From positions 1-64,000 of the IMG/VR virus record IMGVR_UViG_3300047445_000314: 64,000 nt of DNA. One strand, 5' to 3'. This document shows positions 3,520-47,762 of the stretch, in pieces (the stretch's first letter is position 1; every line of letters begins with the position of its first letter). The stretch comes from a virus. The position numbers were made by a program, and so were the translations under genes. The notes below the pieces were generated by a model. It was given only the letters and a program-made list of their open reading frames with translations, was not told where the DNA came from and searched no databases.

Positions 3520-3566
3520 TCCCAGGTCCGTAGGTGGGCACAGGTTTTTACTAACTGAAGGAGGTC

Positions 3567-22616: not shown

Positions 22617-24590
22617 GGCGGGCGCGGCCGGTGCTGGTGCTGCTGGTGAGGAGTGGGGAGGTAAACTGATGCGGCGCGCTGGCCGTACATAGCCATGCTG
22701 ATGCGTTATAGTAGATGCATGGCACTACCGCAGTTCCACCCGCAACCAGTCACCTAGAAAGGGGCTTATCATGGCAACCCATATCATCGGCCAGCGCGCA
22801 CCGAAACCACTCGCGCAAGGCAGCACGCACATTGCAGCGCGCAGCATGGCACCTACCGCACCGCAGACGGTCGCACAGTCGCGTATGCACGCCGCGATAA
22901 CCGGCGCTTGCATGGTCGTTAGCAAAGCCCTTGCTGCCCGCATGCAAGGCAGTATCATCGTCAAAACCAAGGGCGGGTCGGTGTACGGCTATTTCGCCAA
23001 TGAAGACCGGGCAGGCGCTTTTATCACCCGCAACAAGATGCAATTGTACGCCGTCATTGTCCCGGCATAAGGAGCTGTCATGCGTTTCTCCGAAATCACC
23101 GAAGGTACTGTGTTCCTGGACCAGTACTGTGACACCTACACCAAGCGCTCGCCTGATTACGCGGAGCGCCTGCGCGATGGCCAAGAGACCGGCCGCCGCG
23201 TGGAATTCCAGCCGGACGATGGGGTTATTGTGTTGTCCAGCGAGCAGCGCTGGTCGTATATGATGTAGGTTCTTTCCACCACACCACCTTGAAAGGGATG
23301 CCATGAAACCACCGCAGCACCACAAGCATGTGTACCACCAGCGCCGCGTGACGGACGAAACGGACGCGCAGGATGCCGACAACGAGCAGATCATGCTGGT
23401 CGAAGTTGACAACGCCACCGGAGTACACCGCTTCTGGGTCCGCATCAACGTGGCGCGGCCGATCTGCAATGCCTTGCTGGGGGAGGAACACTCCCCGCGC
23501 CAGCGCATGCTGACCGGCGTCGGCGTCATGGCGCTCGGCGTGCTCATCGCCAAGTGCTTCGGGCACAGCCCGATGATGCTGATCTCCAGCATCGGCGACT
23601 GCGTCGGCTATGGCTTGCACGGCCTGGGGCTGACGCCGTTCATCGAGCACCTGGCGGAACGGGTGCGCAGGAAACGTACGTAGTACCGGGCGCGGAGGTT
23701 CTGTAAAGCCTCCGCTTTCGCGTTAAACCGGCCCGTACAGGGCGCGCAGGACAAGCGGGCAGGGTAGGCTAGGGCGGCGCGGAAAACGCCCCAAATAGCC
23801 CTTAAAACCTCACCCGCCGTCACTGAGGGGAGCAGCATGAAAAGCATCAACAAGGGTATCAGCAACACGCTGGATGCCATGTTGTTCGGCGTCCTGGCAA
23901 TACTGGTCAGCGTTGCCTGCCAGCGCGCCCGCATCCGCGAGTGGCTGTGGAGCTAACGTCGTGATTTTGCAATCAACTTCAAAGGAGCATTACCATGTAC
24001 ATTCCACAAAAAGGTGACATCGTGAAGGTCGTTGACCTGCATCAGCAGGACGCTTTCTACGAGGATGGTGAGGCGTATAGCTTCATCGGCACCCTGCGCA
24101 CCGTCACGATTGGTGCGGACAAGCCTGGCGTCCACGCGGATGCTGAAAACGGCTATTTCGCGCTGGGTCTGGATGGAGAACCTGACAGTCCGTTCTTCTT
24201 CGGTGTCAAGGTCGAACCGGCGTTCGGCTTCTGACCCTCCGCGCTGGCACTACCGGACTACGCTGATACGCTATAATTACTACATCGCCCCACCAACGGG
24301 GCGACAATCTAAACCACCTTGAAAGGGGAATATCATGAGTATGCATATCCATTACACTGCCGCCGACAAATCGGTCAACGAAGCCAAGGCCCTGCGCGAT
24401 TGCAAGGACTACCTGGGCGGCAAGTTTTACACGGCCAAGGCGCTGTTGAAAAAACAGGCTGACATGAACGAGCGCACCACCAACAAGTACCGCAGCATCG
24501 CCATGGCGCTGGACTTCGCCGGGATACGCGGCTACTGGCCGGTACGCGCCATGGTGCGCGAAGTCCTGAAGTAAGCTACACCGATCAACC

Positions 24591-31522: not shown

Positions 31523-31945
31523 CATTTCGCGGAGGGTCTTTCTACTTCCCTATATACCTCATAGACGTGGCTCATCCCTCCTTTAAACTCTGAAGGGCGC
31601 GGGTGGGCGCGCAGGCTTCTATGCAATTGTCCTCAATCCTACAGGCTGTCTACGAGGCTTTGTGTTTAGACCGTGGAGTATCAACTGCACATTTTTACTA
31701 GAAACAATACTTTTGAATTCATTATCGGTCATGACTGCCGTCGTGTCTGATCCTACCTACTTCGCATACGCCCCGTACCTACAGGCTCCCTGGCTTATCG
31801 CACCCTGGCCGTGGCCCCTCTCAGGTGGGCACTGCAATCCCTATACTACACCCCTGGTGGTGGGCATGTGTACTGTACTACTGCTACTGGTGAGGTGGTG
31901 AATTAGCTGTTATGATCAGTACTCTATTCAAACAAGGAGGCTGTT

Positions 31946-32305: not shown

Positions 32306-33489
32306 TCCTGGTCTACAATGAATTTGCAATTGATTGCATAATGGAGTCTCTTACCCCACCCTACGGGAGAACGCCATGAACACCGTCTCATCTACCGCGC
32401 AAGTTGCCACCACGCCTTATGGCGATGCGATCTACCAAACGTATCATGGCGCGTTCGGCCTCATTGAAACGACCATTCCTTTCCTCGGTCACTTCGACAT
32501 CGGCATCCATGACGATATGGGCAATGTGGTTCCGGCCAATTTCGGGCAGATGTTCGCTGGCTTACACGACGCCGACCAGAATCACTAAACTGGATTTCGC
32601 GAGGGGTTCTGTTACGGCATAATGGAATCTCTCACCCCACCCCGCGTTACCTTGATTACCTTGAAAGGAATCATCATGAGTCACTACACCGTCAATTTCA
32701 CCGGCAACGCCGCCGCTGTCCACAAACAAGCCATCGCGGAATGCAAGCGTTGGATGGGTGCCAAGCGCTTCAAGGAATTCATGGAGAACCTGCGCGCCTT
32801 GACGGCCAAGGACAGCAGCACCACACGCCTGCGCCGGATATACTTCTACGCAGGATTGACTGGCATGCAGGGCCGCTCTGTTGTCCACGCGCTCTACCGT
32901 GAATCGGTCAAGTAGTCCACCTCATCCACCATAAGGAGCTATCATGAAAACCGTGCCAGCACTCAACCCTAGCCGTCCCCTCAGCAACCTTGGCTACCTG
33001 TCGGATATGGCCATCCGCGCCCTGTTGCGCTCCTTCCCACCCGACGCCGACATCACCGTGGGCGACATCTTCATCAAGGTGGCATCCCCGCAAGGAGAGC
33101 CGGTTCTGAGCGCGGCGCGGCTGACCCGGAATAACTGGCATGTCCGGGCGCGCGCCGGTCTGATTACCGCAACGTATCCACAGCATCTGAGCTGAACGAA
33201 GGTAAGCTGAACCCCAAGCCCACCCGCGCAGGTGGGCACAGTTTTCCTTATACTACATCGCTGCTGCTGCACCCCTGGTGGGCACGGCCCACGCTATACT
33301 GCTGCGCTGCTGGTGAGGGCGTTCGTGATAGAGTATGTGCTGCGCTGGTGCTGTACTGCTGACGTGGTGGTCCTGGTGATGTGGTGCGCGGGTGGTGTAG
33401 TAGGACACACTGCTGCCCACCCTACCTCCTCCTGCCATGGCATAATGAACTCCTCACCTCCCCACCCACGCACCTAGAAAGGGCATATC

Positions 33490-33750
33490 ATGAAAAACGC
33501 GCACAGCATCGTCAACGAACGCGGTTGGAACGTCCATGAATGGCAGCTTAAGGAAATGCTCGGCCTCTCGCGGAAAGCCAAACTTCCCGCCGCAGGCTTG
33601 CCAGAACAAGTCGTACAGGGCGTCACGGTATGGGCTAAGCCGCTCGATCCTAATCGCCGCCAGCGCGCGCCACATCGCATGATGGCGCGTTGCCCGCAAT
33701 GCGGTAAAGAAATGAGCGCGGGTCGTCTGTTCCAGCACGTTTGCAAGTAA
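33490..33750 (+). CDS. C2H2-type zinc-finger protein
   Basis: 'RCPQCGKEMSAGRLFQHVC'; leader motif at 33471. Confidence 0.7.
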   Translation: MKNAHSIVNERGWNVHEWQLKEMLGLSRKAKLPAAGLPEQVVQGVTVWAKPLDPNRRQRAPHRMMARCPQCGKEMSAGRLFQHVCK

Positions 33751-33756
33751 TTGCAC

Positions 33757-33780
33757 GCGCCCTCCGGGGCGCTTTTCTTT
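33757..33780 (+). terminator. Rho-independent terminator
   Basis: GCGCCC-TCCG-GGGCGC followed by TTTTCTTT. Confidence 0.75.
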
Positions 33781-34338
33781 GCGCGCAGGCTCCATGTGCT
33801 GTACTGCTGTTTACCCTGTAGGTGGGCACGGTGATCCTTATACTACCCCGCTGCTGGTGCACACGTTCGTGATTATTTTCCCTGCTGCGCTGGTGGTGTG
33901 CTGAAGGCGTGCTGCTGCTGGCGTGGTGAGGCCCTGAGAACGCCAGGTGGGCATGTGCCAAAAACAACCTATTTTGTGCTGGTGAGACCGACCGCGCCCC
34001 ATGCACCGACCAGGACCAGGACGGCGAGCGCAAAACCCAAAACCCGATGCACCGCATACGAGGGAATCGATCAGGAAGGGATCGGCCTCGCGTTGACGTA
34101 CGCCAAGAATGCGCGAAGGCAATCTCATGTATAAGACCCGGCGCAGGTCATGTATAAGACCGTACCGCAGTCTTATAGCTTTTCCGGTATATGTACGTTT
34201 ATACAGTAAAACGCGCAGGTTCGACGATCGGACAGTCGCCAATGCCTTCCTATGCACGGCGCGCAGGTCGCCTAAAAAGCGCCTTAAAACGCGTTTAAAC
34301 GGCATCCGATTATTTTGCAATCAATGTCAAAATTCGCC

Positions 34339-34366
34339 TTGAATTGCTTGTTTTATTCCCTATAAT
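34339..34366 (+). promoter_or_regulatory. sigma70-type promoter next to a palindrome site
   Basis: TTGAAT-16-TATAAT; palindrome at 34315-34330 just upstream. Confidence 0.65.
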
Positions 34367-34424
34367 GAATTTAGCGCGGCAACAAAGCGCGCCCCTCCCC
34401 AGCTATCCACAATTGGAGCTAGTC

Positions 34425-35012
34425 ATGAATACCGATAACAAACCAGTCGCAAACCCAGTCGCAAACGCTTTCGGCGCTTTCGTCGCCAGCGCGGAAATCG
34501 CCAAACAAGCTACCGCGCCAGTCGTCGCGCCGGTTAAGGCAAAGACCGTCAAAACGACGACAGCCACCAAAGCGAAAAGCACGCCCGCGATTGCCATGTT
34601 CTCCCTCGTCAATCACCCTTTACAGTTCATTGTCCGCGATGGCTCAGGCGCAGCTAAGTTGTTCGCACATACGGCCGCATGGCTTGACCTCACCGGCTTG
34701 ATCCGGGGCGAATCATACCCGGCCGACATTATTCGCGAATTGGGGGGTTCGGCTTATTCCAACCATACGCGACTTGGCAATTTTACCGAATCGCAAGGTA
34801 TGGCGTCCCTCACGCCGCAGGGTTTGACGCATTTTCGCGCAAGGGACACGAACAGCGCCAAAGATATTCCCTCCGGCAAACAAAAGTATTTGATTGAGGA
34901 CAAAGAACATTACATGCTAATGATGATGGAAGGCGTCAACGATGCGCGCTTAGTACGGTCCGAATTGACCGTTAAGAAAATCAGCGCGAAATTCCCGCAG
35001 TATTTCAAGTAA
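34425..35012 (+). CDS. Protein with a K/A/T-rich N-tail and putative wHTH (paralog of 16583-17269)
   Basis: GGAG RBS; shares motifs with 16583; the gene contains no CTG or GTG trinucleotide. Confidence 0.8.
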   Translation: MNTDNKPVANPVANAFGAFVASAEIAKQATAPVVAPVKAKTVKTTTATKAKSTPAIAMFSLVNHPLQFIVRDGSGAAKLFAHTAAWLDLTGLIRGESYPADIIRELGGSAYSNHTRLGNFTESQGMASLTPQGLTHFRARDTNSAKDIPSGKQKYLIEDKEHYMLMMMEGVNDARLVRSELTVKKISAKFPQYFK

Positions 35013-35075
35013 GCAATACCGGGGGGAGTCAGACACTCCCCCTCTTTCCCTCATCTACCCTCATTGGAGATTGCC

Positions 35076-35405
35076 ATGAAACAACATTCCCTCCGCGCCT
35101 ATCGCGCCGCCGCACAAGCGTCATCCCCTTGCTATTGCGCATCATTCGACGCGCAAGGCAATATCGTCGAAACGGAAATCGCCCAGCGCGCACCGATACG
35201 CGCATGGTCCGACTTTGAACCCGACGAAGTACACTACACACACCGTATCATGGCCTTGCAAGAAACAGGCGAGGAAGTATTCTACTCGTATGCGACCGAA
35301 CGCACCGCAGCGCGCAAGATCACCGAAGCGCACAGGCAGCATGTCGAATGGCGTCGCGTATGGTCCGAAGCACTCCCCCGCCATGGCGCACCACGTAGCA
35401 TCTAA
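35076..35405 (+). CDS. Hypothetical protein
   Basis: GGAG RBS; lies within the CTG/GTG desert. Confidence 0.65.
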   Translation: MKQHSLRAYRAAAQASSPCYCASFDAQGNIVETEIAQRAPIRAWSDFEPDEVHYTHRIMALQETGEEVFYSYATERTAARKITEAHRQHVEWRRVWSEALPRHGAPRSI

Positions 35406-35606
35406 GCGGCGCGCAGGGTCTACTAAGCGCGCTCCCTTCCTTCCATACATTGGAGAACATCATGAAAAACATAGTCGCCCTTGTCATCGCTACCGCATCC
35501 GGCGCAATGATCTACCTTACTGCCTCCGGTATCCATGACAGTATCATCCGGGTTGCGCAGGCAGTCGTTATTGCAGCACACTAACAATTACAAAAGAGAG
35601 AATATC

Positions 35607-35765
35607 ATGTTGCTTACCGCTTGCATTATCTTCGCCCTTATCATGTCCTTACCCGCTATCAATGCGGCGCACGCTCAGCTTGCCATTGTCAAACAGCAGC
35701 GCAATTACGACAGCGAATTGCAGCGCGACAAATTTGCACGCGGCAAGTTGCACGAGGAAAAGTAG
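35607..35765 (+). CDS. Small membrane-anchored protein
   Basis: Hydrophobic N-terminus; AGAGAG RBS. Confidence 0.5.
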   Translation: MLLTACIIFALIMSLPAINAAHAQLAIVKQQRNYDSELQRDKFARGKLHEEK

Positions 35766-35959
35766 TTCCAAACGACAATTATCCTATGCTCGGTATTCCC
35801 ACACGGAAAAATTGAGCATAGGAAATAAAAAATTTCTCATATCGACGGGCGGTGAGCGTTTTTTGTACCTACAGAGTTTTCAACTACCCTTATCAGTTTC
35901 TTCTCCCAGTATTCCCTCTTCCCCCAGCCAGCGTCATGGTCTTCTCTTGCACAGTTCAT

Positions 35960-36076
35960 GACCGGGATCACGACCGGGTACGGGTATGCGTTTATGGCCG
36001 GGTACATTGACCGGGATCGCGTCCGGGTATATAGAAAAATTTTGAAAAGGGCTGTGTCTCGGTACTTGGCCGGGTT
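35960..36076 (+). repeat. Cluster of short CCGGG(T/A) direct repeats
   Basis: About seven copies of (G)ACCGGGAT/CCGGGTA, the first six at roughly 8-17 bp intervals, in non-coding DNA. Confidence 0.7.
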
Positions 36077-46695: not shown

Positions 46696-47064
46696 ATGGC
46701 AACCATTCGCAGGGCACCGCGCCCCTCCGCGCCGGTAGCAGAACCATCACCAGAAGCCCTCAAGCCTCCCGCCCCGCCATCGCGCGCGGAACTGCTCGGC
46801 GCTACCAAGGAAGATGGTGAGATCGGCTCCAGCCGGGTTGACTACGTTGCCGTCATCCAACGCTACCAGGACAAGGTGTCCAATCGCGGTACGGCCATTC
46901 GCGCAAAATGCGTCGAGTGCTCGGGCGGGGCTTTGTCCGAGGTGCGCGATTGCCCGATCACCAAATGTGCGCTGTGGCCATATAGGATGGGCACCGACCC
47001 GAATAACAAAAAGACCGCAGCCAAGCTGGCCAAGGGTATCGACAACGAGGAGGATGAGGAATGA
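46696..47064 (+). CDS. Conserved Cys4 phage protein
   Basis: 'AIRAKCVECSGG..SEVRDCPITKCALWPYRMG'. Confidence 0.75.
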   Translation: MATIRRAPRPSAPVAEPSPEALKPPAPPSRAELLGATKEDGEIGSSRVDYVAVIQRYQDKVSNRGTAIRAKCVECSGGALSEVRDCPITKCALWPYRMGTDPNNKKTAAKLAKGIDNEEDEE

Positions 47065-47762
47065 GCTATAACAAGGATCGCGGCCAGAAGGTGCCGATGA
47101 TAATCGGGATGTACGGCCTACCGCGCAGTGGCAAGGACACCGCCGCCGACTTGATGGTCAACGAGTTCGGTTTCGCGAAGGAGAGCTTCGCCAAGCCGTT
47201 GTACGAGGAAGTGGCCGCCGCCTTCAACGTCACGATTGAGAACCTGCAATCGAGCGCGTGGAAGACTTACGAGGCACCCGAGCTGTCATTGTATAACTGC
47301 AATGATCATGACTTTGTCGATGCCATCCGCGCCATCGAGCTGTTCTACGGCATGAATTCGTCGGAGCATGAGCAGGCGTTCGACAAATTCGAGTACAGCC
47401 CGCGCACCTCGCGCTTCATCCTGCAACGCTGGGCCACCGAGTACCGGCGCGCAGACGACCCGCTGTATTGGGTATGGAAGATGCGGGAACGGCTGGTCCC
47501 GTTGCTGGAGGCGGGCCGCGACGTGGTCATCGCCGACCTGCGCGAGGAGCCGGAAGTTCAGCTCCTGCTCGGCCACGCCACCGCGCTGGGTCTACCGATC
47601 CGCATCCTGGAAGTCACGCGCGAGGGCACGGTATCCAATGGGCATAGTTCGGACAACGCCCTGCCGCGCCACTACATCCACACTACCATCCGCAATGACC
47701 ATCTCGACGAGTATCTGTCGACCATCCGCCGCACCATCAACAACGTCAGGAGAACCAAATGA
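47061..47762 (+). CDS. Deoxynucleoside monophosphate kinase
   Basis: 'IIGMYGLPRSGKDTAA', 'SFAKPL', 'R.ILQRWATEYRR', 'VIADLRE..E', 'HSSD'; T4 gp1-like. Confidence 0.9.
   Translation: MSYNKDRGQKVPMIIGMYGLPRSGKDTAADLMVNEFGFAKESFAKPLYEEVAAAFNVTIENLQSSAWKTYEAPELSLYNCNDHDFVDAIRAIELFYGMNSSEHEQAFDKFEYSPRTSRFILQRWATEYRRADDPLYWVWKMRERLVPLLEAGRDVVIADLREEPEVQLLLGHATALGLPIRILEVTREGTVSNGHSSDNALPRHYIHTTIRNDHLDEYLSTIRRTINNVRRTK

Follow-up and report, generated by a model that had tools for sequence, protein, structure and literature searches.

In the window analyzed here, the first 64 kb (positions 1 to 64,000) of the 99,206-bp IMG/VR phage record IMGVR_UViG_3300047445_000314 (the phage under study, G000, complete according to CheckV), short non-coding tracts on the + strand are saturated with the trinucleotides CTG and GTG (jointly STG), and the largest of them runs directly into an early operon from which the same two words are almost absent (the void). 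Tracts and adjacent operon are the target-rich and the target-free half, respectively, of one conserved cis code, and comparison of the sequences indicates that this trinucleotide code, specific to the strand and to the phage lineage, is real. At the level of sequence, its independent support is the position, the strand, the recurrence in other phages and the existence of a second word set that co-varies in both halves.

Saturated tracts and the adjoining void

Three tracts stand out (A0, A1, and A2; Table 1). A2 holds 30 STG in 190 bp, A1 28 in 164 bp and A0 10 in 56 bp, with a background of 6.5 +/- 2.8 per 190-bp window over the whole 99,206 bp, and they are the three densest 190-bp windows genome-wide (30, 29, and 24; the fourth has 18). 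A previous sequence-only reading of this DNA had counted about 30 words at 33795-33984 and pointed to similar tracts at 33255-33415 and 31850-31900 and to a short one at about 22631-22650; the recount gave exactly 30 for the first, and the others were recovered with 28 words, 10 words, and a six-word run. Word density in the tracts is 16-22 per 100 nt, and the words come mostly as in-phase pairs or triples rather than singly. The spacing d = 3 is dominant, with later peaks near 6/7, 10, 13, 17, 20, and 23. A strict triplet register (RecA-like filament or translation) was considered and discarded, since enrichment of multiples of 3 stops after d = 3 and 6 and the peaks suggest a period of ca. 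3.3 nt. The tracts are poor in A and contain more G (0.32-0.41) than C (0.18-0.26), the voids mostly show the opposite (C>G), and A1 and A2 are paralogous across ca. 110 nt.

The four (STG)2 hexamers appear in near-equal numbers (CTGGTG 17, CTGCTG 16, GTGCTG 14, GTGGTG 12), which bears on the idea that the tracts are Chi-like clusters (GCTGGTGG) taming a RecBCD enzyme that arrives from the right. GCTGGTG is found five times in A1 and A2, there is one perfect Escherichia coli Chi at 33889, and the orientation suits an enzyme coming from that side. However, equal use of the four hexamers leaves no defined octamer, the idea gives no reason for the void downstream, and phages JP1 and RcMenchie (see below) use purine-rich [AT]G[AGT] words in the same architecture. 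A related phage has been reported to be circularly permuted (PMC10281142), which implies no fixed end and also weighs against Chi. We consider this explanation very improbable.

Words in all three phases and stops in all frames indicate that the tracts are non-coding. Ten of 12 tracts have their words spread about evenly over the phases (the two others, A0 and tract B1 of the relative G001, are skewed), and most tracts have stops in every frame. That they encode Leu/Val/Cys-rich peptides, the outcome that the sequence-only reading had set against its own proposal, could draw on open frames of 41-81 codons overlapping the tracts; against it stand the phases, the stops, and the lack of any conserved peptide among A1, A2, or the tracts of relatives. 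We conclude that the tracts do not encode peptides, and of all the explanations weighed here this is the least credible.

Single-strand RNA folds of A0, A1, and A2, computed for both strands, were weaker than those of dinucleotide shuffles (z from +0.8 to +1.5; A1 +1.39, A2 +1.49), and an Rfam search of the tracts matched no family. This lack of structure fits an accessible single strand. A hairpin-type single-strand initiation (ssi) signal was rejected because the tracts fold below their shuffles. The sequence-only reading had described the tracts as ssi-like priming patches that complement the desert in a "prime here / never there" code; the ssi-like part did not hold, while the paired halves of a strand-specific code did, since they abut exactly, keep their position in relatives, and change words together.

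The switch from saturation to absence is exact at 33984/33985, just where it had been placed before. The final STG of A2 occupies 33982-33984, the next one is a CTG at 35520, and the first GTG is found at 35852, so that the void (33985-35851) holds a single STG while ca. 70 are expected. No other trinucleotide in the genome has a gap as extreme as those of CTG and GTG (33x and 24x their mean spacing). On the other hand, the complements CAG and CAC (CAS) are normal inside the void (77 versus 75 expected), and ATG and TTG are at or above expectation. Its first ca. 440 bp (33985-34424) are non-coding and also word-free. The four genes that follow have no in-frame CTG/GTG (28 expected) and one out of frame (12 expected); CTG makes up 58% of the Leu codons elsewhere in G000, and the operon lacks any CTG or GTG codon. 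Removal of both in-frame and out-of-frame words means that the constraint acts on nucleotides and not on codons. When the STG minus CAS skew is cumulated and detrended, its maximum coincides exactly with the junction of tract and void (34003 in G000 and 77470 in G001), after a steady climb, mainly by CTG over CAG, through a block of small genes of ca. 30 kb upstream. The 15 kb following the void in G000 are ca. 35% poorer in STG.

A depletion confined to one strand is also what evasion of a host restriction or BREX-like system needing inverted asymmetric sites (Type III, MANTIS strand bias) could leave, and phages are known to deplete asymmetric sites on one strand as a strategy (bioRxiv 10.64898/2026.09.23.753747). 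However, the known biases are genome-wide and involve sites of 5-6 bp, whereas here 3-nt words are missing over 1.4-1.9 kb only; genome-wide, STG and CAS are equal in G000 (3398 versus 3596), and the saturated tracts are left unexplained. We consider this reading as improbable as that of Chi-like clusters.

Common to the three tracts is a head, CAGGTGGGCAC-N9-TATACTA(C), of the form GGTGGGCAY-N9-TATACTAC on the + strand, which from its motif appears promoter-like and does not correspond to the sigma-70 consensus. There are 13 copies of GGTGGGCA on the + strand of the genome and 2 on the - strand. A1, A2, the tract at 22.6 kb, and tracts B1 and B2 of G001 are found directly 3' of an intrinsic terminator or a terminator-like hairpin; no terminator was detected after A1 or A2, and none between A2 and the early operon. 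When viral contigs were scanned for exact copies of this motif, one match appeared, likely by chance. Extra copies of the head (GGTGGGCAY-N8-10-TA[AT]ACTA) are located at 3533, 4598, 19353, and 32153, before genes without an STG tract, and thus head and tract are separable elements. Some of these copies are also the 3' arm of a terminator hairpin, with a T-run following. In addition, 16-bp palindromes of the TTGCAAnnnnTTGCAA type are found in intergenic positions genome-wide, among them those at 32324, 33741, and 34315, some adjacent to tracts and one immediately preceding the sigma-70 promoter; G001, SM1 (TGCAAGCGCTTGCA), JP1, and RcMenchie have analogous ones.

Conservation in related phages

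In the relative G001 (99,461 bp, portal 52% identical), three tracts (75280-75500, 76660-76765, and 77330-77472) are present, the last one followed at once by a void (77473-78896) that ends 10 nt past a terminator. The void genes of G001 have no words, either in frame (15 expected) or out of frame (14 expected), and no recognizable protein is shared by the two phages in the tract/void region. In six further viral contigs, a tract of 12-24 words per 100 bp was found directly to the left of a void of 0.75-1.7 kb, often with smaller units of tract and mini-void upstream. The layout is therefore kept in G001, L023, L025, L026, L028, L029, and L043, though the local proteins are not; the position of the tracts, which the sequence-only reading had proposed to check in related phages, is conserved where the local proteins are unrelated. 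Most voids end at or just past terminators or an A/T element, and the words resume at once afterwards. Pooling the voids of eight phages (10.4 kb) gives one CTG (184 expected) and one GTG (158 expected), with CAS normal, GAG at 0.37x, and AAA at 2.5x, although these figures illustrate the effect and are not an independent test, as the voids were chosen as the longest gaps. GAG is 2-5-fold depleted in the voids throughout, and some voids (those of L023, L025, L029, and L039) additionally lack ACT, GAC, or TGA. Certain phages may avoid more words than CTG and GTG.

Among cultured phages, Pseudomonas phage SM1 (PolA 56% identical) retains strong tracts (71890-72190 and 73040-73170), whose head is nearly identical. 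Position 1 of the FBPa45 record (ON857939.1) corresponds to SM1 72196, only a few bases from where the large STG tract ends, and there is no terminal repeat. The void as a direct terminal repeat or genome end was not adopted; the start of the G000 contig cuts a gene that is intact in G001, and circular permutation has been reported for a relative (see above). Three matches to DnaA boxes (TTATCCACA, ATATCCACA, and TTATTCACA) at the start of the G001 void (77517-77563; L019 17517-17563) were also set aside, as they are not conserved in other relatives.

Most informative as to mechanism are phages with other words. Agrobacterium phage JP1 (PolA 40% identical) has the same layout with AGA, AGG, AGT, TGA, TGG, and TGT, i.e., [AT]G[AGT]; its tract (84900-85226) contains 19-24 words per 100 bp and is followed by 1,424 bp with none (99 expected). 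Rhodobacter phage RcMenchie has three [AT]G[AGT] tracts, a mini-void of 350 bp, and a void of ca. 1.4 kb that crosses the start of the record. Both voids contain a small membrane peptide and a Lys/Ala-rich protein, and both end after terminators, extending 180-240 bp beyond the first one; that of JP1 ends also at an A/T element, CATAG..AAATAAAAATTTTT, common to the STG phages. Genuine ribosome-binding sites within these voids are forced into the word-free forms C-GGAG-C or CGGAAAGC, and reading of [AT]G[AGT] by the ribosome as Shine-Dalgarno sequences was rejected because the true sites themselves avoid the words. That the saturated and the absent words change together points to a lineage-specific reader that sees one strand. 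Neither tract nor void was found in Aeromonas phage HJ05, and T7 has no void and no desert of GTC, the site of its own primase.

The early operon and its borders

Coordinates of the features in the window are given in Table 1. Judged by lists of open reading frames (ORFs) without gene calling, G000 appears to be transcribed almost wholly from the + strand. The first early protein has a disordered Lys/Ala/Pro-rich tail and a conserved domain of ca. 130 aa (KLFAHTAAWLELTGLIHG ... EDKEHYMLMMMEG), with 21 metagenomic homologues (P0003-P0023); it had no match in viral contigs and one, a 1.1-kb contig, in metagenome contigs. A fold model (predicted local distance difference test score, pLDDT, 76) gave only weak matches of winged-helix type (E >= 0.25). 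With its tail and conserved domain, the protein is linker-histone-like in style. Proteins of the same style, with no detectable homology, open the voids of G001, L026, L028, SM1 (in FBPa45 annotated as AlgP), JP1, and RcMenchie. No homology was detectable between the first early proteins of the STG phages and those of the [AT]G[AGT] phages. The leader of the small ORF at ca. 22772-22900 resembles that of the ORF at 33490 (cacctagaaagggg..atcATG).

On its right side, the void is bordered by the A/T element (CATAG-N-AAATAAAAATTTTT or AATCGACCATAGAATTT), whose conservation exceeds that of all local proteins; the element is found in G000, in G001 (78843-78890), L028, L043, and JP1 (86620-86645). 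Its possible roles include terminator tail, DNA-unwinding element, and binding site. Just to the right of the void there are iteron-like repeats, with GACCGGGATC/CCGGGTA units at ca. 35940-36045 in G000, 9x CATAACCGATT plus 4x AAAATTCCAGCAT at 243-520 in RcMenchie, and 3x TATACAATTCTT at 78930-79200 in G001. This region is a candidate origin or cluster of regulated promoters. The GC skew of the genome gave no clear origin signal, and the 31.5-36.5-kb region had no DNA-level match to GenBank phages.

Table 1. Tracts, voids, and accompanying features in the window (G000 coordinates)
Feature	Position	Strand	Remarks
Short STG tract, six-word run GTGCTGGTGCTGCTGGTG at 22631-22648	22631-22657	+	Directly after an intrinsic terminator
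Mini-void, fourth longest STG gap in the genome	22698-22934	+	Behind the short tract; small ORF at ca. 22772-22900
Promoter-like head of A0, AGGTGGGCAC-N9-TATACTAC	31823-31849	+	
Tract A0	31850-31905	+	10 STG
Terminator-like hairpin GCCCACC..GGTGGGC	33221-33256	+	Overlaps the promoter-like head of A1
Tract A1	33255-33418	+	28 STG; 46-nt insert repeating the head (33277)
Mini-void, third longest STG gap in the genome	33432-33727	+	Nearly all of the 86-aa ORF
86-aa ORF, C-x2-C...H-x-C motif	33490-33750	+	Behind A1
Intrinsic terminator of the 33490 ORF	33757-33782	+	
Tract A2	33795-33984	+	30 STG; heads at 33820-33846 and 33945-33975; final word ends at 33984
STG void	33985-35851	+	One CTG at 35520
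Sigma-70-type promoter TTGAAT-16-TATAAT, 10/12 matches	34339-34366	+	In the void, 355 bp past its start
First early gene	34425-35012	+	Lys/Ala-rich disordered tail and ca. 130-aa domain
Three more small early genes	35076-35405, 35462-35584, 35607-35765	+	
Hairpin and A/T element CATAGG-AAATAAAAAATTTCTC	35793-35840	+	Right border of the void; motif also present in relatives of both word sets

Candidate readers of the code

The gene content of G000 includes a tape measure protein, portal, protease, and endolysin-like protein, together with a replication set composed of a DnaB-type helicase, PolA (a family A polymerase with a uracil-DNA glycosylase-like domain), a DnaG-type primase, and an AAA ATPase. 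The primase (97459-98469) has DNAG_N and Toprim domains and an N-terminal CC..H..H..CxxC zinc-binding motif. From sequence, it is the only sequence-reading single-strand enzyme identified in G000; a search of 138 further ORFs for a reader enzyme gave only ThyA, domains of unknown function, and structural families. The site of proteobacterial DnaG is d(CTG) (PMC2978363), and STG, with its central T and 3' G, has the same form as that triplet. The residues of the zinc-finger strand are TSI[FY][NH]C in five of six STG phages and PIFNC in L056, whereas in the [AT]G[AGT] phages they are RSWTRC and RSGYRC.

We tentatively propose that the tracts are priming pads, exposed by transcription and read by this zinc-finger DnaG-type primase. 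The code would be read on the + (coding, non-template) strand while it is single-stranded. Transcription would start at the head and proceed through the G-rich tract, opening the duplex, probably as an R-loop, as at the origins of T4 or T7; the displaced strand would then present a dense unstructured array of triplets to the primase, and DNA chains would start in the tract and run leftwards. The rest of the transcription unit (the 86-aa ORF behind A1 and the four-gene operon behind A2) would offer no recognition triplet on the displaced strand, and hence chains could not start inside. A G-rich tract favors R-loops, and the void is mostly C>G. We infer all three key elements, i.e., the heads as promoters, the formation of the R-loop, and the reading of STG by the primase.

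The voids ending near terminators, together with the void small ORFs behind tracts, tie the code to transcription units. With the promoter-like heads, they fit either priming of the R-loop type or a reader of RNA. In the latter case, the tracts would be transcribed 5' leaders acting as a dense sink, decoy, or processing zone, the triplet-free early mRNAs would be immune, and the reader would be a lineage-specific endoribonuclease or an RNA-binding repressor or terminator, either phage encoded or a host factor active early. Several observations speak for such a code in RNA. Voids mostly stop at or just past terminators (G001 78843-78890; L023 and L025), entire small ORFs that follow tracts lie in word-free stretches (33432-33727 and 22698-22934), the words are gone from all frames and untranslated regions, and the tracts follow terminators, have promoter-like heads, and are not separated from the operon by a terminator after A2. 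They are also unstructured, very dense, and present in several paralogous copies, like sponge RNAs, and the ca. 35% depletion in the 15 kb after the G000 void would be expected of a cost that fades with time after infection. However, no RNase or RNA-binding domain was found among the 138 further ORFs and the early proteins (most of them ORFans), the other phage mRNAs all carry the words at normal density, and no tract matched Rfam. Furthermore, the void begins 180-390 bp upstream of sigma-70 promoters, the voids of JP1 and RcMenchie continue for 180-240 bp after the first terminator, and some words are located upstream of the heads. We regard this alternative as nearly as probable as priming by the primase, which we rank slightly higher because a candidate enzyme exists, iteron-like arrays and an A/T element flank the void, the JP1 and RcMenchie voids pass the first terminator, and all voids begin upstream of the sigma-70 promoter.

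It should be noted that a considerable number of points weigh against the priming proposal. In its plain form, a code of DNA only, it leaves unexplained the voids that end at terminators, the void small ORFs, and the promoter-like heads. T7 lacks a GTC desert, and HJ05 has no code in spite of a primase with residues like those of the [AT]G[AGT] group; phylogeny could explain the zinc-finger difference between the word sets equally well. To read [AT]G[AGT] on the + strand, the primase would have to initiate opposite G, which is unusual for DnaG-type enzymes. A total of 30 sites in 190 bp, with three to four pads within 2.2 kb and another one 11 kb off, exceeds the need of an origin. The SM1 void is only relaxed (ca. 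1 versus 3.2 words per 100 bp), a mirror CAS-rich tract on the opposite strand was looked for and none was found, some words precede the heads, and these are only putative promoters. Lastly, the benefit of a priming-free operon is conjecture.

Two further readers would act on the DNA itself. A phage single-stranded DNA (ssDNA) endonuclease or nickase with triplet specificity could nick the tracts to give 3'-OH ends for strand-displacement synthesis, the displaced strand of the early operon being uncuttable. Nucleases of this type include T4 endonuclease IV (5'-TCA) and the chlorella virus nickases (CCD, RAG). Their logic is the same, strand specific, at the triplet level, and variable among lineages; TCA is among the complements of [AT]G[AGT], and an HNH-like "endonuclease" is encoded upstream of the SM1 portal gene. 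However, no such nuclease was identified in G000, and the words present on both strands elsewhere would need protection, with no modification genes found and a canonical ThyA, which makes a nickase unlikely. Alternatively, a bulky base modification of the virion DNA at the words could block the unmodified host RNA polymerase on the template strand, the tracts being roadblocks that gate the neighboring units until replication. This would account for the strand asymmetry (CAS is tolerated on the coding strand) and for the restriction to the earliest unit, and the complement C-A-[CG] resembles the target of Mu Mom. Against it, no methyltransferase, Mom-like protein, transglycosylase, or hydroxymethylase was found in G000, the ORFs right behind the supposed roadblocks are themselves void, which the model does not need, and the void starts upstream of the sigma-70 promoter. 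The thymidylate synthase (680-1597 in the window) is canonical (Pfam E 5e-83); together with a dNMP kinase (47061-47762), it speaks for ordinary thymine in G000 DNA. We consider modification a still weaker candidate than the nickase.

Whichever the reader, we find it rather probable that a broad group of 80-100-kb siphophages of Proteobacteria has a hitherto undescribed cis code, in which lineage-specific triplets saturate the leaders and are excluded from the coding strand of the immediate-early operon. A co-evolving phage reader (the primase or a protein reading RNA or ssDNA) would thus fix where priming, cleavage, or binding must, and must never, occur in the first minutes of infection. If the primase is the reader, this would be the first natural genome that programs where lagging or retrograde chains start and cannot start, and the recognition triplet of a primase could be read off the genome sequence alone. 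With a reader acting on RNA, the code would represent a new principle of self/non-self distinction in early phage expression, combining word avoidance with a sink in cis. In either case, the tract/void signature can be computed from sequence and marks the immediate-early operon where the early genes are all ORFans, and its presence in cultured phages (Pseudomonas SM1/PA_L9, Agrobacterium JP1, and Rhodobacter RcMenchie) makes it directly testable.

Comparison with known systems

Parts of this arrangement have counterparts elsewhere. Like Chi, the tracts are GT-rich and strand specific, and GCTGGTG is frequent in them, but they are degenerate (STG)n and not an octamer, and the purine-rich words of JP1 and RcMenchie rule Chi out. 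The strand bias of Type III and MANTIS systems is likewise an orientation-specific depletion of a non-palindromic word, in that case genome-wide and of 5-6 bp, whereas that of G000 is local, of 3 nt, and adjoins saturation. In ACA-less mRNAs (MazF) and with T4 RegB (GGAG), a word of 3-4 nt is removed from the transcript in all frames, as in the void; different here are the conservation of the void over phage lineages, the switch of word set, and the saturated tract that precedes it, and no RNase was identified. Sponge RNAs (CsrB, RsmY, and RsmZ, with GGA motifs) and the leaders of TRAP and HutP resemble the tracts in that a 3-nt motif, separated by short spacers, is repeated many times along an unstructured leader, and in their paralogues. 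The G000 tracts, unlike sponge RNAs, have no terminator of their own, and we know of no sponge RNA paired with the complete absence of its motif from the neighboring operon.

The ssi signals (G4 oric, phiX174 n'-pas, and plasmid ssiA) share with the tracts the proposed role as the start of RNA priming on one strand, and E. coli DnaG uses CTG. They are, however, stable hairpins, while the tracts are defined by word density and fold below shuffles. At T4 oriF/oriG and the T7 primary origin, the transcript from a phage promoter opens the DNA, and the primase acts on the displaced strand. The region downstream of the G000 heads differs in being G-rich, with ca. 30 triplets, rather than A/T-rich, and in being followed by a triplet-free zone of 1.4-1.9 kb, which T7 itself lacks for GTC; its role in G000 is only proposed. 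The likeness lies in the promoter-like head of phage type followed by a short non-coding region, in several copies per genome, in the phage primase, helicase, and PolA encoded by G000, and in the -10 box with an upstream box ca. 10 bp away, an arrangement that the tract heads share with T4 middle promoters.

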